From Okeania sp. (lineage in GTDB: Bacteria > Cyanobacteriota > Cyanobacteriia > Cyanobacteriales > Microcoleaceae), in NCBI RefSeq assembly GCF_035285525.1, contig NZ_JAYKGW010000047.1:8149-40148 (forward strand): a DNA stretch of 32,000 bases, in the 5' to 3' direction. Position numbers and translations under genes: made by a program. The notes below the pieces were generated by a model. The model was not told the origin of the DNA. It did not search any database and saw only the letters and a list, made by a program, of their open reading frames with translations. Positions 8,038 through 31,249 of this stretch are shown here, piece by piece. Every line of letters begins with the position of its first letter. Position 1 is the first letter of the stretch.

Positions 8038-9090
8038 ATGGTAACAACCACAATGGACAATCTTGTTAGCTCGTATAAGGAGGAATTAATATCAGACAGT
8101 ATTTCTATTGGCATTGACAACGGCAACGGACGGATCAAATCCAAATCTAGTAAAGGTGTAGAGGTTCGGATTAAATCATTAATCCACTATTTAGATGATG
8201 AGCAAGAAATAACAGATGGCGGTCAAGAGTCCGTGTTTGTTGAATATGTAGTAGGTCCCCGCACTGACTTGTGTGGCAAAAGGTTCGTAGTAGGTCAACA
8301 AGCTTACCAGTTCGATCCGGTTGGAGTGCTATCAACTTCAGATGATAGAGAAGGTAAAAGCAAGTTTGCTTTAGAGCTAACCCTAGCTGCAATAGCAGCC
8401 AGTATCACAATGGATTATACGGATGTAGGGATCGTATCAAGTGTACATGATCTTGCAGTCTTGAATGATTTGAAGTCTAAAGTTAATGGAGAACATACAG
8501 TCAAGCTGAATAATCAAATCAGAAAAGTAAATCTTGACTTAAAAGCTGTGAAAACAGAAGGTGTGGGAGCTTATGCTAGCTTGTTGCAGACCAAAAAATG
8601 CAGCAAAGAATCCCAGACAGTTTTGCTCGACCTTGGTTATGGAACAGTCATAGTTTCTGTTTATTCCAACGGCGCTTTCAAACAAATATTGCGATTTCCA
8701 GATCTGGGTGTTAAGTCTCTATATCAACGCATTGCTAATAATTTAGATTTGCGCAAACAGCTAAAACGTAACGGCGATATGCAGCTTATTCAAAAAGCTG
8801 TAGAATGCGGTGATTTTGTCTATGGCAACAATAAGATTAGTGAATTTTCCATTGCTGAAATTTACAATCAGGAATTGAGAATATGGGTCAAAAACTCACT
8901 GGTAAAGGTATTAGGCAAGATTGATAGCTATTTAGATGGCGCTGAGTTTTTGTTTGCTATTGGTGGCGGTGCTAAACTACCAAAAATCTCTCCCTGGCTT
9001 GAAAAAAAAGGTTTTGAGACCATCGAAGATTCCGAGTTTATCAATGCTCGTGGGTTACTGGCGATCGCACAAAGAGAGGCTAAAAAATGA
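8038..9090 (+). CDS. ParM/StbA-family actin-like ATPase
   Basis: Actin-fold motifs occur in order: IGIDNGNGRIK (phosphate 1), LLDLGYGTVIVS (phosphate 2) and FAIGGGAKL (adenosine). The ORF is open from the TTG at 8014. ATG candidates are at 8038 and 8053. Confidence 0.8.
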   Translation: MVTTTMDNLVSSYKEELISDSISIGIDNGNGRIKSKSSKGVEVRIKSLIHYLDDEQEITDGGQESVFVEYVVGPRTDLCGKRFVVGQQAYQFDPVGVLSTSDDREGKSKFALELTLAAIAASITMDYTDVGIVSSVHDLAVLNDLKSKVNGEHTVKLNNQIRKVNLDLKAVKTEGVGAYASLLQTKKCSKESQTVLLDLGYGTVIVSVYSNGAFKQILRFPDLGVKSLYQRIANNLDLRKQLKRNGDMQLIQKAVECGDFVYGNNKISEFSIAEIYNQELRIWVKNSLVKVLGKIDSYLDGAEFLFAIGGGAKLPKISPWLEKKGFETIEDSEFINARGLLAIAQREAKK

Positions 9091-19069: not shown

Positions 19070-20410
19070 ATGAAAATTGCTTATCTTGACTGTCCCACTG
19101 GTATTGCGGGCGATATGTGTCTGGGTGCTTTAGTCCATGCTGGCGTTCCTCTGGAGTATATCATGGAAAAACTAAATCTTTTGGGTATTGCCCAAGAATA
19201 TGAATTAAGTACAGAAAAAGTTCATCGTAATGGTATAATGGCGACGAAATTTCATGTGAAGTTAATTCATGCTAATCCTGAAGATGGAGAACCTTTAACT
19301 TTTGATAGTCACCATCACCACCATCACGATACTGAAAATGATTCTAGCGCTGAAAAAAATCATCATGCTCACAACCGTCATTTACCAGAAATTGAAGCAT
19401 TAATTAAAAAAGCAGGATTGCCGGAACGTGCTGAAGTTTGGAGTTTGGCTGTTTTTCGTAAGTTGGCAGCAGCAGAAGGTGCTGTACATGGTATTGCTCC
19501 TGAGAAAGTGCATTTTCACGAAGTTGGAGCAACTGATGCTATTATTGATATTGTGGGAACTTGTTTGGGTTTAGATTGGTTAAATATTGATGAGTTATAT
19601 TGTTCGCCTTTGCCTACTGGTGGCGGAACTGTGAGAGCAGCTCATGGTAGATTACCTGTACCTGTACCAGCAGTATTAAAACTTTGGGAGTTACATAATG
19701 TTCCGGTTTATAGTAATGGTATAGAAAAGGAGTTGTGTACTCCGACGGGTAGTGCGATCGCTTGTGCTATTGCAAGAGGTTTTTGTTCGTATCCGTCGAT
19801 GTCTTTACAATGTGTTGGTTTGGGAGCGGGTTCCCAGAATTTAGCTATTCCTAATATTTTGCGTTTGTGGATTGGTGAAAGTAAAGCTCAGACTCAACAT
19901 TCTCATATTAAAAAATCTGATGTTCCTACTACGGAGGTTCCATACAATGTTTCTACCGAAAATTCGCATCTGGAAACTGTGTCGGTATTAGAAACTCAGA
20001 TAGATGATTGTTCTCCCCAAGCGATCGCTTATACTTTTGATACTTTGTTGGCTGCGGGTGCTTTGGATGTGTTTACTCAACCTGTGACAATGAAAAAAAA
20101 TCGGTTGGGAGTATTACTGACTGTTATTTGTACAGCAGAAAATTTGTCTGTTTGTGAGGAGGTAATATTTAGGGAGACTACGACTTTGGGTATTCGTCAG
20201 TCTCTGCAACAAAGAAGTATTTTGGCACGAGAAATTCATCAATTAGAAACGGAGTATGGAACAATCAGGGTAAAGGTCGGGAAAATGGGAAATAAAATTG
20301 TGAATGTGCAACCAGAATATGAAGATTGTGCGAAGGTAGCTAGACGGGAAAATATGCCGTTGATGGAAGTACAGAAAATGGTATTACAAAATTGGAAGAA
20401 AAGGGAGTAG
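19070..20410 (+). CDS. larC: nickel pincer cofactor biosynthesis protein LarC (nickel insertion)
   Basis: 446-aa ORF. MKIAYLDCPTGIAGDMCLGALVHAGVP is the canonical LarC N-terminus. It also has a His-rich insert (HHHHHHD...HHAHNRH), HEVGATDAIIDIVG and the C-terminal LarC2-like half. Confidence 0.9.
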   Translation: MKIAYLDCPTGIAGDMCLGALVHAGVPLEYIMEKLNLLGIAQEYELSTEKVHRNGIMATKFHVKLIHANPEDGEPLTFDSHHHHHHDTENDSSAEKNHHAHNRHLPEIEALIKKAGLPERAEVWSLAVFRKLAAAEGAVHGIAPEKVHFHEVGATDAIIDIVGTCLGLDWLNIDELYCSPLPTGGGTVRAAHGRLPVPVPAVLKLWELHNVPVYSNGIEKELCTPTGSAIACAIARGFCSYPSMSLQCVGLGAGSQNLAIPNILRLWIGESKAQTQHSHIKKSDVPTTEVPYNVSTENSHLETVSVLETQIDDCSPQAIAYTFDTLLAAGALDVFTQPVTMKKNRLGVLLTVICTAENLSVCEEVIFRETTTLGIRQSLQQRSILAREIHQLETEYGTIRVKVGKMGNKIVNVQPEYEDCAKVARRENMPLMEVQKMVLQNWKKRE

Positions 20411-20730: not shown

Positions 20731-21678
20731 TCAGACTTGAACTATATCCACGCGATCGCCTACGGTTAAACCTAATTCTATTGCTCTACCACCTCTCAAC
20801 TCAATCACCCGATCGACAGGAATATCTGGTCCATAAGTAGGGCAAGGTTCAGTTTCACAGGGAGGCAAATTAGAAAAAATCGCCTGTATTTCCCCATTCC
20901 TCAGAAACACCATATCTAAATTAATAAATACATTTCTCATCCAAAAATTCACCGTGCGAGGAGGAGCGATAGAAAATAACATTCCCCGCTCGTCGGGCAA
21001 CTCAGTTCTAAACATCAAACCAACGGCTTGCTCTAACGGAGTTTGCGCCACCTCCAAATTAACAACTTGACCAGAAAAATTTGCCTGTGCTGAAATTGGT
21101 AACATTTGCCCTAACTCCACTTCACCGAACAATGAACTAAAATTTGATTCTTCAAGATTTGTCACTCCTAATAAAACTGCCAAATATTCTCCTGTTACTC
21201 CATCTTGAATAATAATATTATCCTCAGCAGGCAAAATATTCAACTCACTAAATTGTAACCCTCCAGTTAGAATTAAGCGATCGCTACCATTCCGAAAATC
21301 AGTAATTACATCTGCATCTGCCAAATTTACCCCACCAGTAGAGAATAAATCTTCACGTCTACCAATAGCAAACAAATCGTCTCCTTCGCCCCCAGTCATT
21401 GTATCCGCACCCAAGTTCCCAATTAACCAGTCTGCTCCCAAATCTCCAGAAATAAAGTCATTTCCTTGCCCACCAAAAATAGTATCGGCATCTTGCCCAC
21501 CAAAAATAGTATCATCCCCCTGATTACCTTGGAGAACATCGGTTCCTTGGTTGCCAAAAATTTGGTCATTACCCCCGAAACTTTGAACAATATCTTTACT
21601 TGCTAAAGCAGGGATAATATCACTATCGGGAGTGCCACTGAGAAAGTCAATATTTAGTGTGCCTTGAATATTAGTCAT
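20731..21678 (-). CDS. RTX-type calcium-binding repeat protein fused to a C-terminal DUF192 domain
   Basis: The N-terminal half has GGxGxD nonapeptide runs (FGGNDQIFGNQGTDVLQGNQGDDTIFGGQDADTIFGGQGNDFISGDLGAD...). The C-terminal part reads AQTPLEQAVGLMFRTELPDERGMLFSI...FWMRNVFINLDMVFL...PPCETEPCPTY...VIELRGG...GDRV, which is the DUF192 signature. Confidence 0.75.
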   Translation of the reverse strand: MTNIQGTLNIDFLSGTPDSDIIPALASKDIVQSFGGNDQIFGNQGTDVLQGNQGDDTIFGGQDADTIFGGQGNDFISGDLGADWLIGNLGADTMTGGEGDDLFAIGRREDLFSTGGVNLADADVITDFRNGSDRLILTGGLQFSELNILPAEDNIIIQDGVTGEYLAVLLGVTNLEESNFSSLFGEVELGQMLPISAQANFSGQVVNLEVAQTPLEQAVGLMFRTELPDERGMLFSIAPPRTVNFWMRNVFINLDMVFLRNGEIQAIFSNLPPCETEPCPTYGPDIPVDRVIELRGGRAIELGLTVGDRVDIVQV

Positions 21679-21980: not shown

Positions 21981-22198
21981 TATCTATCTAATTTAGGATT
22001 TGCCTAGTTTTCTTTTAATGATAGTTCATTAATGGATAATGGATAATTACTTCTCCCTAAAAGTTAGAGGATTGGCGCTTAAGTAAAAGATTTATTTTTT
22101 CCCTATCCAAGGGGAGGCTTCAAGGGGCGAATTATTTAATTATTTAATTGTTTAATTATTTAATTGTTTAATTATTAATTATTTCGCTAAACTATTTT

Positions 22199-22503: not shown

Positions 22504-22773
22504 ATGAATAATGAACAAACGTCCATAATCTTTAAAGTCAAAATCCACTATATAAACGGAGAAACTCAAACTTTTGAAGTCTGCGGACAAGGATGGGATA
22601 ATGTTGATATTGCCAGTCGTCTTTTTCAAATACAAAAATCTGATAAATTAATTTTGCAATTAACAGATAATAGTCTTCAAGTTATTCCCTACAGCAGCAT
22701 TTTATATTTAACAGTTGACCCTGCACCTCCTAAACTACCAAAAGATATAATTACTGGAGCGACTTTATTATAA
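22504..22773 (+). CDS. hypothetical protein (89 aa)
   Basis: Its composition is balanced compared with the overlapping minus-strand ORF. No family is recognised. It is bracketed by two MITE copies. Confidence 0.45.
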   Translation: MNNEQTSIIFKVKIHYINGETQTFEVCGQGWDNVDIASRLFQIQKSDKLILQLTDNSLQVIPYSSILYLTVDPAPPKLPKDIITGATLL

Positions 22774-23434: not shown

Positions 23435-23989
23435 ATGAAAGAGATAAATCAATACTCAGATAAATTATTTCTAGTCCGAAATTTACTCGATAATGAACAA
23501 TGCGATAAATACATTGAAATGGCTGAATCAATTGGATTTGAAGAAGCAAGTATTACAACAAACTTCGGTTCTGTTATGGATAAAAGTATTAGAAATAACG
23601 ATCGGGTAATTTGGGATGATGAAAAGTTAGCAAAAGAATTATTTGAAACAACAAAATCTTACATTAAAAATCCTTGCAAAGGATTATATTGTACTGGTTT
23701 AAATGAGAGATTTAGGTTTTATAAATATTCTCCTGGTCAAAAATTTGGTTGGCATTCTGATGGTTATTATGAAAGAGAAAATGGCGAACGTTCGAGATGG
23801 ACTTTATTGTTTTATCTAAATGATGGTTATGAAGGTGGTGCAACGAAATTTAGAACTACAGAAGTAAGGGGAAATAAGGGAGATGCTTTGTTTTTTTTCC
23901 ATCGTCAATTACATTGTGGTGACATGGTAAAGTCAGGCATTAAATATGTTTTACGGACAGATATTATGTATGAAGCAAAGGTTAAATAA
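23435..23989 (+). CDS. 2OG-Fe(II) oxygenase (prolyl 4-hydroxylase-like)
   Basis: 184-aa ORF. It has the HxD...H facial triad candidates (GWHSDGYY and QLHCG), a downstream basic residue (KYVLRTD) and double-stranded beta-helix size. Confidence 0.8.
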   Translation: MKEINQYSDKLFLVRNLLDNEQCDKYIEMAESIGFEEASITTNFGSVMDKSIRNNDRVIWDDEKLAKELFETTKSYIKNPCKGLYCTGLNERFRFYKYSPGQKFGWHSDGYYERENGERSRWTLLFYLNDGYEGGATKFRTTEVRGNKGDALFFFHRQLHCGDMVKSGIKYVLRTDIMYEAKVK

Positions 23990-24028
23990 TTAATAATTAA
24001 TAATTAATAATTAATAATTAATTATTAA
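23987..24028. repeat. STRR heptamer array (TAATAAT)
   Basis: It starts in the stop codon of the oxygenase gene and runs into the MITE at 24032. Confidence 0.9.
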
Positions 24029-24190: not shown

Positions 24191-24216
24191 AGTAATTAAT
24201 AATTAATAATTAAATT

Positions 24217-24318: not shown

Positions 24319-24406
24319 GTAATAACTAAATTTTGCTAGGGCGGGTATCTTGCCCGCGTTTGTTTACCTCATCAAAGTAGAATCTAATGTATCTTTTCCT
24401 AATACT

Positions 24407-25714
24407 ATGAAAACATCATCTTTTCTAAATTTAACTATTGGATTATCTCTAATAATTAATTTAATTGCGGCAATAATAATCAGCTCTTCATTACAATATG
24501 CAGATTTAATTCACGTTATTACTATTGGTTCAATTATTTTATTAAGTTGGTTTCTGTTACCGAAAATTTTGCCTCTTCAAAAGAGTACATATGGCGCAAA
24601 TAATGGTCTATATGATTTTGGTCTGGTTCCTAGTTTCTTATCGCTTGGCTTATTGCATGAGGTATTTTATGGATATCCTAAAAGTGCTCCTAGCTACTTT
24701 AAAAAAATATGTCTATTTACGCCATTTTTAGCAATACTTTTCTGGTTATATAGTTTAGGTTTCACTGCTTTTCCTTTAGTATTAAAAATCATTTGGTTAT
24801 TGCTAACAATACCTATGATTTTTATCCTTCATCTTGGTGCTGATAAAGTAAGTTATGCAATGTGGATACCGACTTTTCTGTTGCCAATATTACAAGCGAT
24901 CGCTCTGATAACAGGTATTATAAGATTTTTTCTTTTAGATATATCAACTAAGGTAGAAATAGGGCAAAGTCTGTTAATCGTAATTGGTTTTGCCATATTA
25001 ACAGTCCTATGGGCAGGAAGTCTGGAAATAATATCAAATGCTCAGAGAAATAAAAGTAAATTATTGTTAGATAATCCTAGAGTTTGTATTTTTGTCAGAG
25101 TTATTAATCCTGAAAATCAAGACTGCAAAGTAAATTCTACTGCTCTAAATAAACAGCGTGGATTTTTACATGAATATGCAAACAGCCAAGGATATAAACT
25201 AGATCGTATTCAATATACTGTAGATAATGGTTATACAGAAGAAACAGATGAATTAAAACAATATCGCCAAGCATTTATATCTTTATTGGAAAATCCAAAT
25301 TATAATATATTTCTGGTAGAAAAAGAAGAAAGTTTAGCTAGGTTTGGCATTGAAGAAGCTAAACGTATCCTCAAAGAAAATGGCAAATATCTTGAAGTAT
25401 TTAATCAAGAAATTGAAAAATCAAGACAAATAGAAAATAAGCAGATTTTTACTATTTCTATAATATTGCACACAATGGTTATTATCGGCGGATTAATAGG
25501 AGGTTGGCGGTTAAATTTGTTCATTTATTTTTATGCTCCTTTGGTATTCTTCTGGATTCTTTGGCTATTTTTAGTCATAATATTTACTATGCTAGTTATT
25601 ATGCTATTAAAAGATAACAAAGATAACCCTTACCCTTACCCTATATTTGTGGCTTCTTTAATTCCCTTATTAATATTACTAGCATTCGGTTTCAGAGTAT
25701 TTATCAACAGTTAA
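24407..25714 (+). CDS. polytopic membrane protein with a central degenerate (catalytically dead) IS607-type serine-recombinase domain
   Basis: The ORF is open from the TTG at 24350, but that codon lies in a GC-rich dispersed repeat, so the ATG at 24407 (MKTSSFLNL...) is preferred. About 6-7 hydrophobic helices precede the soluble core, which spans track residues 243-352 (nt 25076-25405). The core reads RVCIFVRVINPENQ...ALNKQRGFLHEYANSQGYKL...VDNGYTEE...FLVEKEESLARFGIEEAKRILKENGKYLEVFN. Three hydrophobic helices follow it. Confidence 0.7.
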   Translation: MKTSSFLNLTIGLSLIINLIAAIIISSSLQYADLIHVITIGSIILLSWFLLPKILPLQKSTYGANNGLYDFGLVPSFLSLGLLHEVFYGYPKSAPSYFKKICLFTPFLAILFWLYSLGFTAFPLVLKIIWLLLTIPMIFILHLGADKVSYAMWIPTFLLPILQAIALITGIIRFFLLDISTKVEIGQSLLIVIGFAILTVLWAGSLEIISNAQRNKSKLLLDNPRVCIFVRVINPENQDCKVNSTALNKQRGFLHEYANSQGYKLDRIQYTVDNGYTEETDELKQYRQAFISLLENPNYNIFLVEKEESLARFGIEEAKRILKENGKYLEVFNQEIEKSRQIENKQIFTISIILHTMVIIGGLIGGWRLNLFIYFYAPLVFFWILWLFLVIIFTMLVIMLLKDNKDNPYPYPIFVASLIPLLILLAFGFRVFINS

Positions 25715-25727
25715 CAATTAATTCAAA

Positions 25728-25894
25728 ATGGATAATCAATCGTAAGAAAAATTATTAAATCAACTAATAAATCCCCTAAAAGCTAAAGACTGGAAAACGG
25801 CTAATGAGATTATTTTTTGTCTTTTTTTAGAACTATTCCTGAAGATATTAGTAACTATAGATGAATTCATAATCAGGATTTACATAAGATTAAA
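25728..25894 (+). pseudogene. dead duplicate of the 5' end of the GUN4/receiver gene
   Basis: ATGGATAATCAATCGTAAGAAAAATTATTAAAT...GGAAAACGGCTAATGAGATTA...CCTGAAGATATTAG...ATCAGGATTTACATAAGATTAAA aligns base for base with 26346-26513. It has a stop at codon 6 and indels. Confidence 0.7.
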
Positions 25895-26093
25895 TTAGTT
25901 AACTATTCAGATTTTAGATACCTTCTATACAAAGTTATTACCCTACTCCCATATTTCAAAAAAATTAGTAAAAACTTATCAAATTGGTATTAAGTGTATT
26001 GCTTTTTATAAAAGTTTTAATTTTCGGATTTACCATGACTATTAAAACCAAGTTTCCTTGACTAAACTACTTCAATAAAAAATATTATTTAAC

Positions 26094-26339
26094 ATGATTT
26101 ATCCTGAGCCTCGTATTACTTTAATTGTTTTCTCACTTTTAGGTTTAATTGCTTTTTATTTTCCTTTGATATTCTGGATTATTTGCCTATCGTTAATAAT
26201 AATATTTACTATACTACTTATTGCAATACTCATATATTGTGGTCTGGCTCACTTTATATTTCTCTTTCCTCTGATTCCCTTATTAAGATTGCTAGCATTC
26301 GGTTTCATAATATTTATCTTGTCAACAGTTAACAACTAA
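26094..26339 (+). CDS. 81-aa three-helix membrane protein, paralog of the C-terminus of 24407..25714
   Basis: FPLIFWIICLSLIIIFTILLIAIL...LIPLLRLLAFGFIIFILSTVNN parallels APLVFFWILWLFLVIIFTMLVIML...LIPLLILLAFGFRVFINS. The DNA homology continues through the stop into the next gene. Confidence 0.55.
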   Translation: MIYPEPRITLIVFSLLGLIAFYFPLIFWIICLSLIIIFTILLIAILIYCGLAHFIFLFPLIPLLRLLAFGFIIFILSTVNN

Positions 26340-26345
26340 TTCATC

Positions 26346-29300
26346 ATGAATAATCAATCATCAGAAAAATTATTAAATAAACTAAGAAATCGCCTAGAAG
26401 CTAAAGATTGGAAAACGGCTAATGAGATTACTTTTTGTCTTTTTTTTGAAACTATTCCTGAAGATATTAGCAACCCTGGATGGATTCATTATCAGGATTT
26501 ACATAAGATTAAAGATGAAGTTTTAAAAGAAAGCGATCGCCTCTGGGTATATCATTCTGAAGGACGTTTTGGTTTTAGTGTTCAATGGCAAATTTTCTAT
26601 CAATTATATCTAGAATTATATCTGGAAGGAAAGCATAGGGATTATATGATGTTAGAAGAAACTTTTGCAGAAAAAGTTGGTCGTATTAGAGCTGCTGGTT
26701 ATGATATTAAAGAAGTTAATTTTAGTTTAGATTTTCCTCAAGGATATTTACCTTGGTTTCACTGGTATGATTCTCAAAACTATAAATTTCGTAGTGGCAT
26801 AACGGGAGGTGGTGGTGTGGGTTGGGAAGCAATTTTTTATGTAGCAGAATTATTAGAAAGAAGTGGTGCAATACCTCCAGAAGGAAAAGTATGGAACCGT
26901 CAAGAAATAATAGAAAAAATAAAAGAAGGTAATCCTAATTTTAGTCGAGGTAATTTAGTAGGAATTGATTTACAAGGGTTAGATTTATCTAATGCAAATT
27001 TTCTCGGTGCAGATTTAAGTCAAAGTAATCTTGCTAAAGCAAAATTAAATAAAACTAACTTTTATTCTGCTAATCTCTATGAAGCTAATTTATCTCAAAT
27101 AGAAGGAATCAATACTTATTTCAGAAAGGCTAAATTGGAAGGTACAATTTTTTGGCAAGCTCAACTTGTTAATGTTGACTTGACTAAAGTTTCTGCATTT
27201 AGAGCAATATTTGATGAAAGTAAATGGGAAAATGTGAATGCAACTGAGGGAGACTTTTTTGCAGCAAATTTTTATTGGGTTATCTGCCAAAATACATCTT
27301 TTTCCCAAGCCGATATTTCCTATACAAGTTGGCAAGAAGCAATTTTAAAAGACTGTAATTTTGCAGAGGTAGTTAAAAATAAAGCTAGACTCAAAATGAC
27401 TAAATTTGTCGGCAAAAATTGGAATAGTCAATTAGACAAGTTAACAACTTCTAAGACAAAGACTTTAGCAAATCTTCCTTTAGCAAAATATAAACCTATA
27501 GATAAGAGATCGCCCACTATTTTTATTATTGATGATTCAATTACAGTTAGAGAATTATTATCTATGACTTTTACAAAAGCGGGATATAAAGTTGTTTTAG
27601 CTAGAGATGGGCAAGATGCTTGGGAACAATTAAAAGTTGGTTTAGTTTGTGATTTTATTCTTTCAAATATCGAAATGCCTCGGATGGATGGTATCGAGTT
27701 TTTATCAAGAGTTAAAAAAGATGAAAAACTAAAAGATATTCCCTTTGCACTTTTGACGAGTAGAGGTGCAAATAGAATGCGTACTAATAACTGGTGGGAT
27801 GAACGTATTGTTGCTCGCTTTACTAAACCTTATATTGAGCAAAATTTATTAGAAACTGTTGCTAATACATTAAAAATATTGCCAGAAAATAAGCAACAAA
27901 CTTTAGCCAAAGAAATTACAAATAAACGACCTACTATTTTAATTGTTGATGATTCTATTGTAGCCAGAGAATTATTAACTATGACTTTTACCAAAGCTGG
28001 ATATGATGTTATTAAAGCCAAAGATGGTAAAGATGCTTTAGATAGATTAAATACTGGCGTAGTTTGCGATTTTATTTTTTCAAATATTGAAATGCCTAAG
28101 ATGGATGGTTTCCAATTTTTGGCAGAAGTTAAGCAAGATGAAAAACTCAAAAATATTCCTTTTGCATTTATATCTAGTACAAATAGAAATAAAAATAGAA
28201 TCAGTAGTAGCTCTTGGAATCAAAGTATTGTTGCTCACTTTACTAAACCTTTTATAGAGGAACAATTATTAGAAACAGTTACTAAAGCATTAAATAATTT
28301 GCCAGAAAATAAGGAAGCAACTTTAGCCAAAGAAATTATAGATAAACGATCTACCATTTTTATTGTTAATTATTCAAATACTGTCAGAAAATTATTAAGG
28401 ATAGCTTTGACAAAAGCCGGATATAAAATTGTTGAAGCTAGAGATGGGCGAGATGCTTGGGAACAACTAAAAGCAGGTTTAATTTGCCATTTTATTTTCT
28501 GTGATACGGAAATGCCTCGGATGGATGGTTTTGAGTTTTTATCAAGAATTAAACAAGATGAAAAGCTCAACAATATTCCCCTGGCATTTCTCAGTAGTCA
28601 AGCTAAAAGGAGAAAAGATATTAGCTTAGAATTAGGTGCGGTTCCTCACTTTACTAAACCTTTTATAGAGGAACAATTATTAGAAACAGTTACTAAGACA
28701 TTAAATAATTTTCCAGAAAATCAGGAACAAACTTTAGCCAAAGAAATTACAGATAAACGACCTACTATTTTAATTGTTCATTATTCAAATACTGTCAGAA
28801 AATTATTAAGGATAGCTTTGACAAAAGCCGGATATAAAATTGTTGAAGCTAGAGATGGGGGAGATGCTTGGGAACAACTAAAAGCAGGTTTAATTTGCCA
28901 TTTTATTTTCTGTGATACGGAAATGCCTCGGATGGATGGTTTTGAGTTTTTATCAAGAATTAAACAATATGAAAAGCTCAACAATATTCCCCTGGCATTT
29001 CTCAGTAGTCAAGGTAAAAGGAGAAAAGATATTAGTTTAAAATTAGGTGCTATTGCTCACTTTACTATACCTTTTATAGAGGAACAATTATTAGAAACAG
29101 TTGCTAATACATTAAGTAATTTGCCAGAAAATCAAGATGAAACTTTAGCCGAAAACTGGAAAAATAAACCACCGACTATTTTAATTATTGATTCTTCAAT
29201 TACAGTCAGAAAATTATTTGTAGGATATAAAACAGCCAGAAAATTATTTGTAGGATATAAAATTGTTGAAGCTAGAGATGGGGGAGATGCTTGGGAACAA

Positions 29301-30578
29301 TTACAAGCAGGTTTAAATTGTGATTTTATTTTCTGCGATACCGAAATGCCGCGAATGGATGGTTTCGAGTTTTTATCAAGAATTAAACAAGATGAAAAGC
29401 TCAAAAATATTCCCCTGGCATTTCTCAGCAGTCAAGTTAACAGGAAAAAAGATATTAGCTTAGAATTAGGTGCGGTTGCTCACTTTACTAAACCTTTTAT
29501 AGAGAAAGATTTATTAGAAACAGTTACTAAGACATTAAATAATTTGCCAGAAAATCAAGATGAAACTTTAGCCGAAAAATGGAAAAATAAAACGCCGACT
29601 ATTTTAATTATTGGTACTTCTTTTGATAAACGGCAAGAATTAAGTCACTCTTTTATCAAAGCAGGTTATCAAGTATTCAGAGATATCCTTGGTACTGATA
29701 GTTGGCAAATATTACAAAGCAACTTAAATAATATTGATTTTATTCTATCCGATCTAGGTAATTTAGAATTATTAGAAAAAGTCAAACAGGATGAAGCGTT
29801 ACATAATATTCCTTTGGCAATTATCCACACTAAAGAAATCCTTCCTTTTATTCGAGAACAATTTGATATAGTTGATTACTTTACTTATCCTTATGTAGAA
29901 CAAAAATTGTTAAAATCTATTGCTAAAATTATAGGTAGAGAAGCAGAATATTTAAGCTTTTTGGAAAACTCAATAGAAAGAGAAAAGGAAAATATAAATT
30001 CTGGTAAACTGAGACAATCTCAAACTCGTTTTTTTGTCGTTGGATTAAATTTAGAACAACGGAAACAATTAGTAACTTTGTTCAGATTTAAACCAAACTT
30101 ATTCTGCCATTTTTTTCCAGAAAATCAACTTCTTAATTCTGGTGCAGATAAATTTAATACTCAATTATTAATATCTCAACTACAAGAAAGAATTATAAAT
30201 AATATTAGCCCTCCATCTTACTTCAATAATTTTTATAATTTATCAAACACTTATAACTGTACTTTCATCCCAGATAATTTACTAAATTATTTTGCCGAAA
30301 TTTCTGATAATTCATCTTCTTGTTCCCTATACCTTCTGATTCAGATTAATGTACTTAAAAGTTTAAGCAAACTAAACTTGAAAGAAGCTTTACCTCAATT
30401 TTCTACTATTGTTATTGATGATAAAAATAAACTTGATATTATTTCTTCTGATTTCTTAAAACAACTGCAACAAAATTGGAATACAAAAGCCTATATTACC
30501 AACCTTAAAGCTCCAGATATTTTGGAAACATTTGCCTCTGTAGTTAATGGTGAAGCACCAATCGAAAAAAAAAATTAA
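26346..30578 (+). CDS. 1410-aa GUN4 domain / pentapeptide-repeat / six tandem receiver (REC) domain protein
   Basis: GUN4-like block at aa 8-175 (WKTANEIT...DLHKIKDEVLKESDRLWVYHSEGRFGFSVQWQIF). Pentapeptide repeats at aa 197-345 (NLVGIDLQGLDLSNANFLGADLSQSNLAKAKLNKTNFYSANLYEANLSQ...). REC-like units start at aa 390, 529, 669, 806, 943 and 1084, each matching PTILI(V/I)DDS..VR.LL...KAGY.V..A.DG.DAW..L......F....EMPRMDGFEFL...K.DEKL..IP.A.LSS.....FTKPF. The uncharacterised tail at aa 1199-1410 has faint REC-like blocks. Confidence 0.9.
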   Translation: MNNQSSEKLLNKLRNRLEAKDWKTANEITFCLFFETIPEDISNPGWIHYQDLHKIKDEVLKESDRLWVYHSEGRFGFSVQWQIFYQLYLELYLEGKHRDYMMLEETFAEKVGRIRAAGYDIKEVNFSLDFPQGYLPWFHWYDSQNYKFRSGITGGGGVGWEAIFYVAELLERSGAIPPEGKVWNRQEIIEKIKEGNPNFSRGNLVGIDLQGLDLSNANFLGADLSQSNLAKAKLNKTNFYSANLYEANLSQIEGINTYFRKAKLEGTIFWQAQLVNVDLTKVSAFRAIFDESKWENVNATEGDFFAANFYWVICQNTSFSQADISYTSWQEAILKDCNFAEVVKNKARLKMTKFVGKNWNSQLDKLTTSKTKTLANLPLAKYKPIDKRSPTIFIIDDSITVRELLSMTFTKAGYKVVLARDGQDAWEQLKVGLVCDFILSNIEMPRMDGIEFLSRVKKDEKLKDIPFALLTSRGANRMRTNNWWDERIVARFTKPYIEQNLLETVANTLKILPENKQQTLAKEITNKRPTILIVDDSIVARELLTMTFTKAGYDVIKAKDGKDALDRLNTGVVCDFIFSNIEMPKMDGFQFLAEVKQDEKLKNIPFAFISSTNRNKNRISSSSWNQSIVAHFTKPFIEEQLLETVTKALNNLPENKEATLAKEIIDKRSTIFIVNYSNTVRKLLRIALTKAGYKIVEARDGRDAWEQLKAGLICHFIFCDTEMPRMDGFEFLSRIKQDEKLNNIPLAFLSSQAKRRKDISLELGAVPHFTKPFIEEQLLETVTKTLNNFPENQEQTLAKEITDKRPTILIVHYSNTVRKLLRIALTKAGYKIVEARDGGDAWEQLKAGLICHFIFCDTEMPRMDGFEFLSRIKQYEKLNNIPLAFLSSQGKRRKDISLKLGAIAHFTIPFIEEQLLETVANTLSNLPENQDETLAENWKNKPPTILIIDSSITVRKLFVGYKTARKLFVGYKIVEARDGGDAWEQLQAGLNCDFIFCDTEMPRMDGFEFLSRIKQDEKLKNIPLAFLSSQVNRKKDISLELGAVAHFTKPFIEKDLLETVTKTLNNLPENQDETLAEKWKNKTPTILIIGTSFDKRQELSHSFIKAGYQVFRDILGTDSWQILQSNLNNIDFILSDLGNLELLEKVKQDEALHNIPLAIIHTKEILPFIREQFDIVDYFTYPYVEQKLLKSIAKIIGREAEYLSFLENSIEREKENINSGKLRQSQTRFFVVGLNLEQRKQLVTLFRFKPNLFCHFFPENQLLNSGADKFNTQLLISQLQERIINNISPPSYFNNFYNLSNTYNCTFIPDNLLNYFAEISDNSSSCSLYLLIQINVLKSLSKLNLKEALPQFSTIVIDDKNKLDIISSDFLKQLQQNWNTKAYITNLKAPDILETFASVVNGEAPIEKKN
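27513..29939 (+). repeat. six tandem coding repeats of 411-423 bp (the REC units)
   Basis: Units start at 27513, 27930, 28350, 28761, 29172 and 29595. 28371-28620 and 28782-29031 differ at only about 3 positions by eye. Confidence 0.9.
29202..29261 (+). repeat. in-frame 30-bp tandem duplication inside REC unit 5
   Basis: ACAGTCAGAAAATTATTTGTAGGATATAAA is followed by ACAGCCAGAAAATTATTTGTAGGATATAAA (1 mismatch). It encodes RKLFVGYKTA + RKLFVGYKIV. Confidence 0.95.
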
Positions 30579-31209: not shown

Positions 31210-31249
31210 ACTGATAACTAATAGCTGATAACTGATAACTGATAACTGA
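31210..31249. repeat. STRR heptamer array (CTGATAA)
   Basis: CTGATAACTAATAGCTGATAACTGATAACTGATAACTGAA lies inside the disrupted Rpn-family gene. Confidence 0.9.

Follow-up and report, generated by a model that had tools for sequence, protein, structure and literature searches.

A conserved membrane protein of filamentous cyanobacteria built around a catalytically dead IS607-type serine-recombinase core

A gene in a 32,000-nucleotide stretch of DNA from Okeania sp. (positions 8,149 to 40,148 of contig NZ_JAYKGW010000047.1, assembly GCF_035285525.1; hereafter the window) was found to encode a membrane protein containing the catalytic core of an IS607-type serine recombinase. The gene (24407..25714, + strand) specifies 435 amino acids (aa) plus a stop codon and its product is a polytopic membrane protein with a pseudo-recombinase domain inside. 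The dead IS607 core has very probably been exapted into a conserved membrane protein. The gene product was 100% identical to WP_324235575.1, a 'hypothetical protein' from Okeania sp., a filamentous marine cyanobacterium. The IS607-type core itself (25079..25405, +) spans residues 225-333 and runs in the order b1-aA-b2-aB-b3-aC/D-b4.

Homology of the soluble domain to IS607 transposases

The nearest relatives of the domain in every search were the transposases (TnpA) of IS607-type insertion sequence (IS) elements, matched by NCBIfam model NF033518 and represented in the PDB by 6dgc (ISC1926), 6dgb (IS1535), 3lhk (MJ0014), and 3lhf/3ilx (Sulfolobus). The NF033518 model (transpos_IS607) matched residues 225-338 of the window protein (E 2.8e-7) with 30.3 bits, a score falling short of the curated cut-off of 110 bits for TnpA membership. 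The best four PDB sequence matches were IS607-type cores: 6dgc, 3lhk, 3lhf, and 6dgb. Pfam Resolvase (PF00239) was the only family matched by all seven members of the protein family, each scoring below the gathering score (13.7-16.6 bits vs. 23.3 bits; best E 6e-4; window protein 16.6 bits). When a profile built from the seven family sequences was compared with 1.84 billion representative proteins, one family cluster and eight weak matches (E 4e-7 to 8e-4) were retrieved. All eight of the non-family matches were genuine IS607 TnpAs, 171-205 aa in length and scoring 122-182 bits on NF033518. Profile-profile alignment (hhalign) of the family soluble domain with these TnpAs gave 99.0% probability, an E value of 3.9e-18, and 34% identity over 103 columns.

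Several motifs were present in both the family and the IS607 TnpAs, namely (V/I)x(I)(Y/F)xRV...ENx, L..Q...L..YA...GY, YN(I)(L/F)(L)VE, RFG, and EV.N, and both had the domain order N-terminal module, core, C-terminal helix. The family core differed from TnpA by two insertions of 6 and 7 residues, DCKVNS after ENQ and YTEETDE after NG.

An AlphaFold2 (AF2) model of residues 212-371 (mean predicted local distance difference test, pLDDT, 81; predicted template-modeling score, pTM, 0.68) showed the resolvase order b1-aA-b2-aB-b3-aC/D-b4 followed by a long helix; the multiple sequence alignment (MSA) behind this model included the eight IS607 TnpAs, so the fold cannot count as evidence separate from that of the sequences. 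A Foldseek search of this model against the PDB returned serine-recombinase catalytic domains as all of its top 13 matches, IS607-type first (E 9e-6). The best of these matches, including 6dgc, 3lhk, and 6dgb, had a core root-mean-square deviation (rmsd) of 3.4-3.7 Å over 105-111 columns and TM-scores of approximately 0.5, low because the 38-residue extended helix is part of the model. In BFVD, a viral structure library, the top matches were COG2452 and serine recombinases.

The subthreshold Pfam scores and the TM-scores near 0.5 are what would be expected if the resolvase resemblance were spurious, arising from a generic alpha/beta domain and compositional bias in AT-rich DNA. Such an origin is extremely improbable. 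The independent methods concurred, and all significant matches were serine recombinases, specifically of the IS607 type, with the hhalign E value given above; the low TM-scores came from the extended helix, the core itself superposing at the rmsd already stated. The assignment of the region to an IS607-type core, made in the original prediction from the letters alone, was supported by the sequence profile, the profile-profile comparison, and the predicted fold. Judged by its sequence, the domain belongs by descent to the serine-recombinase superfamily with IS607 TnpA as the nearest member, and its ancestor was very probably the catalytic core of an IS607-family TnpA.

Catalytic-residue loss, charge and selection

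The residues crucial to Tn3 resolvase are Y6, R8, S10, D36, R68, and R71 (Olorunniji and Stark, PMC2794168). Their equivalents were read from the alignment of the seven family sequences and from the alignment with the TnpAs. The nucleophile S10 corresponded to Ile233 (codon ATT, 25103..25105, +), with Ile in six of the seven sequences and Val in Nodularia. Y6 was replaced by an invariant Phe (F229), D36 by Thr or Ile (T/I271), and R68 by a variable residue (S309 in the window protein; S/N/H/R/K across the family). R8 (R231) and R71 (R312, invariant) were kept. Outside these six positions, D67 was replaced by an invariant Glu (E308), S39 by Asn or Asp, and R45 was kept as R287 in 6/7 sequences. 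All seven sequences carried RV(I/V)N instead of the RVS motif, and the segment E307-E308-S309-L310-A311-R312 (25325..25342, +) stood in place of K-D-R-L-x-R. The substitution of the nucleophile and of the DR in the KDRL motif (ES in the window protein), noticed earlier in the Okeania sequence, thus extended to the whole aligned family, with Glu invariant at the first of the two DR positions. Since the substitutions are common to all members, the inactivation is older than the divergence of the family.

No MerR-type helix-turn-helix (HTH) or other DNA-binding domain was found by Pfam, NCBIfam, or alignment, in agreement with the prediction that none is present; the place of the TnpA HTH was occupied by 210 residues of transmembrane (TM) helices. 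The core (b1-b4) was acidic in every member, with an isoelectric point (pI) of 5.0-5.9 and a net charge of -1 to -5, whereas the aligned TnpA cores were basic (pI 9.3-9.7, net charge +3 to +7). Because the core has changed from basic to acidic, DNA binding by it appears unlikely. IS607 TnpA possesses the nucleophilic Ser, the equivalents of Y6, D36, R68, and D67, the MerR-type HTH, and a basic core, and the family has none of these. From the sequence, no serine-recombinase chemistry, transposition, or DNA cleavage is predicted for the family core. The domain has neither the nucleophile nor the catalytic set by which recombinases and transposases are defined, and the other defining features, a DNA-binding domain, an IS context, and a score reaching the NF033518 cut-off, are likewise missing.

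Many polar residues on or around the former active site were invariant (R231, N234, E236, N237, Q238, R251, D266, R267, E305, E307, E308, R312, E317, and K319). This abundance, along with the invariance of the R8 and R71 equivalents and of an acidic residue at the D67 position, would suit a domain that is still an enzyme or nucleic-acid module with altered chemistry, using another nucleophile or acting at the membrane as a phosphate-binding hydrolase or transferase through R231, R312, and E308. Four of the six Tn3-crucial residues were replaced, however, the core was acidic and without a DNA-binding domain, and the R68 position varied freely among Ser, Asn, His, Arg, and Lys, unlike a catalytic site. 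Altered chemistry is for these reasons given very little credence, and the pseudo-recombinase domain is likely to be non-catalytic and not directed at DNA.

Among 5.8 billion clustered proteins the family formed seven clusters at 90% identity and comprised nine distinct sequences, all named 'hypothetical protein' and none with a precomputed Pfam domain. The hosts were Okeania spp., a cyanobacterial metagenome-assembled genome (MAG) from a tar biofilm, Nodularia spumigena (CCY9414 and CS-584), and a few metagenomes. A scan of genome contigs found the gene in only two GTDB species representatives, both already known, and a scan of metagenome contigs found no further members. The gene of N. spumigena CCY9414 is nsp46780 (CP007203, 4723815-4724945); this gene and the neighboring gene for a protein of about 90 aa, nsp46810, are listed among those missing from three model Nostocales, namely Anabaena 7120, N. 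punctiforme, and A. variabilis.

All seven aligned sequences were intact with no frame disruptions. Mean column identity was 80% in the domain vs. 62% overall, making the domain the best conserved part of the protein. Over the whole gene, the ratio of nonsynonymous to synonymous substitution rates (dN/dS; Nei-Gojobori) was 0.20-0.49; it came to 0.10-0.36 in the domain, compared with 0.27-0.61 in the N-terminal TM region, and dS exceeded 1 between Okeania-type and Nodularia-type sequences. The original prediction had called the gene a selected, exapted fold and not transposon debris. This view gained from the intact frames and from dN/dS values below 1 that were lowest in the domain; the Ile and Glu substitutions and the TM flanks were likewise kept in Okeania, the unclassified cyanobacterial MAG, Nodularia spumigena, and the metagenomic relatives, and no sign of a pseudogene or of a lineage-specific insertion was seen.

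A functionless chimera, in which IS607 insertion debris came by chance to lie in frame within a membrane-protein gene and then drifted neutrally, could account for a family that is tiny, patchy, and dispensable, whose cassette has been deleted in relatives, and whose genomic region is prone to duplication, with a C-terminal extension that looks neutral (see below). It is hard to reconcile with an open reading frame (ORF) intact in 7/7 sequences across lineages separated by dS above 1, with a recombinase-like domain that is the most conserved part (dN/dS 0.1-0.36), and with catalytic-site substitutions that are the same in all members, so that inactivation predates their divergence. We consider this origin highly improbable.

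Membrane architecture, C-terminal extension and reading frame

The N-terminal membrane domain (24407..25036, +; residues 1-210) contained six strong TM helices, at approximately residues 7-27, 34-54, 99-120, 122-143, 150-173, and 187-209 by hydropathy and the helices of a full-length AF2 model, and a weaker amphipathic segment at approximately 68-88. No relatives of this domain outside the family were found in Pfam, NCBIfam, or PADLOC, and the full-length profile matched other proteins among the 1.84e9 searched in the soluble domain only. A basic linker (NAQRNKSKLLLDNP; 25037..25078, +; residues 211-224) joined the membrane domain to the core. Clusters of Lys and Arg followed TM2, preceded TM3, and followed TM6 (NAQRNKSK). 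By the positive-inside rule, this pattern suggests a topology with the N-terminus inside, six TM helices, and the linker and pseudo-recombinase domain in the cytoplasm.

Downstream of the core, the region equivalent to helix E of TnpA ran into the sole conserved C-terminal TM helix (25406..25519, +; residues 334-371, with the TM segment at approximately 346-367). In the AF2 domain model, residues 334-370 formed one continuous helix after b4 that became TM7 (pLDDT 61-73), and its counterpart in the alignment with TnpA was helix E. The corresponding region of IS607 TnpA makes up a split four-helix bundle, with dimerization of the cores through helices B and D (PMC6188088); in the family a TM helix stands in place of the bundle.

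Three C-terminal hydrophobic segments were seen in the window protein (346-367, 373-400, and 411-431). The six homologs, however, all ended just after TM7 (...GGWxLNL), at a point equivalent to approximately 25520. Of the TM flanks first described, the six N-terminal helices were recovered; of the three C-terminal helices one was conserved, and the other two belonged to a duplication specific to the window. The predicted conserved architecture is accordingly six TM helices, the domain, and one TM helix. The window-specific extension (25520..25714, +; residues 372-435) supplied the two extra TM helices and had joined the gene in frame where the ancestral stop codon had been. It was part of copy A (approximately 25540-25895) of a duplication with a spacing of about 620 bp, in which copy B (approximately 26160-26515) was 80-87% identical. 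The source of the extension was an 81-aa small hydrophobic ORF in copy B (26094..26339, +), absent from other loci and of uncertain coding status. Copy B also took in the start of the downstream gene, which encodes a protein with GUN4, pentapeptide-repeat, and REC domains (GUN4-pentapeptide-REC); the duplicated unit consisted of the small two-TM ORF and the first ~170 bp of this gene. The rest of copy A was a degraded duplicate of its 5' end (25728..25895, +), with a stop at codon 6 and an indel. Between copies A and B the proportions of nonsynonymous and synonymous differences were similar (pN 0.30, pS 0.25), so there was no sign of selection on the extension. The DNA repeats D4 and D5 suggested that the 81-aa ORF and the extension might have come from TM3-TM4 of the pseudo-recombinase gene; this derivation was rejected, as the BLASTP match (E 1.6) was of the kind that arises by chance among hydrophobic, T-rich codons.

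The mechanical ORF extended over 24350..25714 (+). The ATG at 24407 was the start position of all homologs in the alignment and the alternative TTG start was overlapped by a hairpin at 24339-24357; because of both observations, the ATG at 24407 was taken as the true start. The hairpin (24339..24357, +) was G+C-rich in surroundings of 29% GC, had a 7-bp stem followed by the T-run GTTTGTTT, and lay 50 nt 5' of the ATG. It could act as a terminator for the upstream gene or belong to the 5' leader of the pseudo-recombinase gene. On the opposite strand of the gene there was no ORF of at least 50 aa. The GC content of the gene (0.28-0.29) was the same as that of adjacent genes, and from local base composition 435 open codons would occur by chance with a probability of approximately 2e-16. 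The motifs first quoted for the domain were all found in the sequence, including VRVINPENQ (encoded at 25094-25120), the ATT codon within it, and EESL (25325-25336).

Gene neighborhood and possible role

The family gene was single-copy, its chromosomal context was conserved, and tnpB did not adjoin it. TnpA genes lie in IS elements, typically with tnpB and in multiple copies, and the family gene had neither a TnpB partner nor IS ends; the only TnpB-like gene lay 4 kb off in one locus (L005) and was unrelated to it. GUN4-domain genes adjoined the family gene in four of five independent contexts. GUN4 is a tetrapyrrole-binding sensor domain that is fused to many signaling and conflict domains in cyanobacteria (PMC7159879).

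In the window the downstream neighbor (26346..30578, +) encoded a 1410-aa protein with a GUN4 domain, pentapeptide repeats, and five REC domains, and its orthologs lay downstream of the family gene in loci L004 and L006. In L004 a 223-aa GUN4 gene was upstream and the GUN4-pentapeptide-REC gene downstream; in L006/L007 a STALD-GUN4 gene was 143 bp upstream, again with the GUN4-pentapeptide-REC gene downstream. In the Nodularia context (L001) a GUN4 lipoprotein gene was convergent at a distance of 5 bp, and chlH was nearby. This Nodularia neighbor (nsp46790; L001 9136-9873, -) encoded a lipoprotein-type signal (…LLLSAC…) and a Pro/Ser/Thr-rich linker, with chlH 1.5 kb further; its product is probably exported and probably not the canonical Mg-chelatase activator Gun4.

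Several further features of the GUN4-pentapeptide-REC gene were recorded. It contained a 411-bp tandem array (27516-29613) of five copies with 83% matches, corresponding to REC domains amplified by tandem duplication, and a 30-bp tandem duplication (29202-29262). The orthologs were shorter, with 1175 aa in L004 and 686 aa and one REC match in L006. Some of the REC copies in the window had, by eye, an Asn at what we take to be the expected phospho-acceptor Asp position (…ILSNIEMP…). PADLOC models of the phage-defense candidate PD-T4-6 matched its product at residues 516-653 (REC; E 5e-27) and 10-143 (GUN4; E 3e-16). The pseudo-recombinase protein itself had no match among the PADLOC defense models.

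All five contexts had a gene for an orphan protein of ~90 aa less than 3 kb from the family gene, in two arrangements, those of Oscillatoriales-type and Nostocales-type loci. It was upstream on the same strand in Okeania-type loci, including the window (22504..22773, +; 89 aa), and downstream and convergent in Nostocales-type loci. Its other positions were L001 10092-10409 (-), L006 9427-9708 (-), L004 4896-5186, and L005 6243-6527. The protein carried the motif …YINGxxQTFEV.xQGW…IPYSS(I/V)LY…, belonged to a cyanobacterial family of 17 clusters, and had no match in Pfam, NCBIfam, PADLOC, or the PDB. A 2-oxoglutarate (2OG)-Fe(II) oxygenase gene, prolyl-hydroxylase-like and encoding 184 aa (23435..23989, +), was adjacent in Okeania-type loci only; its product had weak matches to Pfam Pox_C4_C10 and to the PADLOC 'CAS-associated 2OG' model. 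In one locus where the pseudo-recombinase gene was missing (L014 5390-8282; ENA contig_17779), genes for an LDcluster4 (SLOG)-pentapeptide-REC protein, a 2OG-Fe(II) oxygenase, a 71-aa two-TM ORF, and the 90-aa protein occurred together, with hemA (glutamyl-tRNA reductase) adjoining. This arrangement suggests that the conserved core of the cluster is a sensor-pentapeptide-REC protein, a 2OG oxygenase, and the 90-aa protein.

Elsewhere in the window, the unrelated flanking genes encoded a nickel-insertion protein of the LarC type and a fusion of an RTX-repeat protein with DUF192 (19070-20410 and 20731-21678(-)). Intergenic, AT-rich short tandem repeats were present at 23985-24028, 24195-24215, 22130-22184, and 31210-31249, with AATAATT repeated six times, AATTATTT seven times, and ACTGATA six times, and an AATAATT-type run recurred approximately 200 bp upstream of the pseudo-recombinase gene.

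The neighborhood bears on whether the protein could be a membrane-tethered decoy that inhibits IS607 transposition, its dead core heterodimerizing with active TnpA and sequestering it at the membrane. Inactive transposase derivatives often act as inhibitors, IS607 TnpAs are the nearest relatives of the domain, and in the host Nodularia spumigena CCY9414 IS607 ranks with the IS families of highest copy number. Identity to real TnpAs was only 25-34%, however, the charge of the core was reversed, and charged residues stood where TnpA has helix D of its dimer interface. The gene was also missing from nearly all IS607-bearing genomes, given the seven clusters at 90% identity among 5.8e9 proteins, and its conserved neighbors were signaling-type genes and not IS elements. 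A decoy role was judged to be quite unlikely.

A different course of events is preferred. The N-terminal MerR-type DNA-binding domain of an ancestral TnpA has very probably been replaced by the membrane domain and its helix-E region by a TM helix. The core has lost its catalytic residues, DNA-binding domain, and basic charge, and purifying selection maintains the protein. The domain may now act as a cytoplasmic, non-catalytic binding or oligomerization module of a membrane-anchored protein, held at the membrane by the TM helices, including the former helix E. Its conserved polar surface (R231, N234, E236-N237-Q238, R287, E305, E307-E308, R312, and others) would be the binding site for a small ligand or for a partner protein. 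The likeliest partners would be the products of the co-travelling genes, namely the GUN4-domain proteins, the GUN4-pentapeptide-REC protein, and the orphan 90-aa protein, and the protein may be an accessory membrane component of a signaling-type module in filamentous cyanobacteria. Taken as a whole, with the module and its neighboring partners together, this explanation was given slightly better than even chances. The part of it in which the pseudo-recombinase works with the GUN4, REC, and 90-aa neighbors is tentative and by itself rather doubtful.

A number of observations count against this explanation. The presence of TnpAs in its alignment biases the AF2 domain model toward the resolvase fold. 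The full-length AF2 model, built from the seven-sequence family alignment, had a pLDDT of 40 and was unusable for the TM domain or the geometry of domain and membrane. Helix D was far more charged than in TnpA, and TnpA-like dimerization of the domain is uncertain. Overall dN/dS among the nearest relatives (0.33-0.49) was no more than moderately low. The family has very few members and a patchy distribution, and the whole cassette was missing from the syntenic loci of Dapis sp. BLCC M126 and 'Cyanobacteria bacterium P01_H01_bin.35'; there the 90-aa gene was followed directly by genes for a nitroreductase and serine hydroxymethyltransferase (SHMT), and only a ~100-bp scar of the GUN4-REC gene 5' end was left. 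Since the cassette has been lost from related genomes, the gene is dispensable. The 90-aa gene was also found without the pseudo-recombinase gene, and L005 had no GUN4 neighbor. GUN4-domain genes were common in these genomes, L010 for example having a Trypsin-GUN4 gene at a distance of 9 kb, and GUN4 adjacency may partly reflect chance or inherited synteny. No experimental or expression data on the family gene, including nsp46780, were found in the literature.

Two details of these loci were recorded separately. The scars of the GUN4-REC 5' end were located at L010 9478-9591 and L012 9462-9563, and the 5' end of the GUN4-pentapeptide-REC gene seems to be a recurrent breakpoint. In L005 a 2-kb gene-free gap lay downstream of the family gene and contained no recognizable GUN4-REC remnant.

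A more specific mechanism was also considered. Helix E drives the dimer-to-tetramer remodeling of serine recombinases. The transposase core might have been rebuilt as a transmembrane signaling device, in which the remodeled active-site face, with its phosphate pocket, would bind the 90-aa protein, a REC domain, or a tetrapyrrole delivered by GUN4, and helix E, now a TM helix, would transmit binding across or along the membrane. This version is unlikely; if it is true, no earlier pseudoenzyme among the serine recombinases would have a defined cellular role, and multicellular cyanobacteria would possess a membrane sensor of a new class.

The statement that a membrane-embedded pseudo-recombinase had not been described agreed with the literature, in which no membrane-embedded or bacterial inactive resolvase domain was found. 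A dead serine recombinase as such has a precedent in the poxvirus protein F16/OPG061, the only catalytically dead serine recombinase found to be described. According to a preprint (Senkevich et al. 2011, as cited in bioRxiv 10.1101/2022.11.22.517515), F16 has a serine-recombinase core without catalytic residues (DRLxR replaced by KQISI) that is kept for a non-enzymatic role, and the structural neighbors given there include the same entry 6dgc along with 3bvp and 3guv. F16/OPG061 differs from the family in being a soluble protein of a eukaryotic virus that has no TM helices and was inactivated independently. OPG061 models ranked 21-39 among the BFVD Foldseek matches, behind active recombinases, a ranking that gave no specific relatedness, and no specific sequence relationship to F16 was seen either; the parallel with F16 is functional and not one of orthology.

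Serine recombinases such as XisF, SpoIVCA, and the Hin-type invertases of cyanobacteria and Firmicutes were similarly recruited from mobile elements for host functions; these differ in that their catalytic apparatus is complete, their DNA-binding domains are retained, and DNA rearrangement is still what they carry out, and the serine recombinases listed in a review of mobile-element recruitment in prokaryotes were all active (PMC8987985). The architecture of the present family is genuinely unusual, and its distribution is narrow. To our knowledge, prokaryotic transposase domestication almost always retains nucleic-acid chemistry (Cas1, TnpB to Cas12 or TldR, XisF, Hin).

The practical impact of the family is limited by its narrow distribution and its dispensability. 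For the biology of transposase domains, it would be a rare bacterial case of such a domain reused for a job that does not involve DNA, would demonstrate that a non-catalytic module can be made out of the resolvase fold, and would add a second, independent dead serine recombinase beside poxvirus F16. It also draws attention to an uncharacterized gene cluster, comprising the GUN4-pentapeptide-REC gene, the 90-aa orphan, and the 2OG oxygenase, in bloom- and mat-forming filamentous cyanobacteria.

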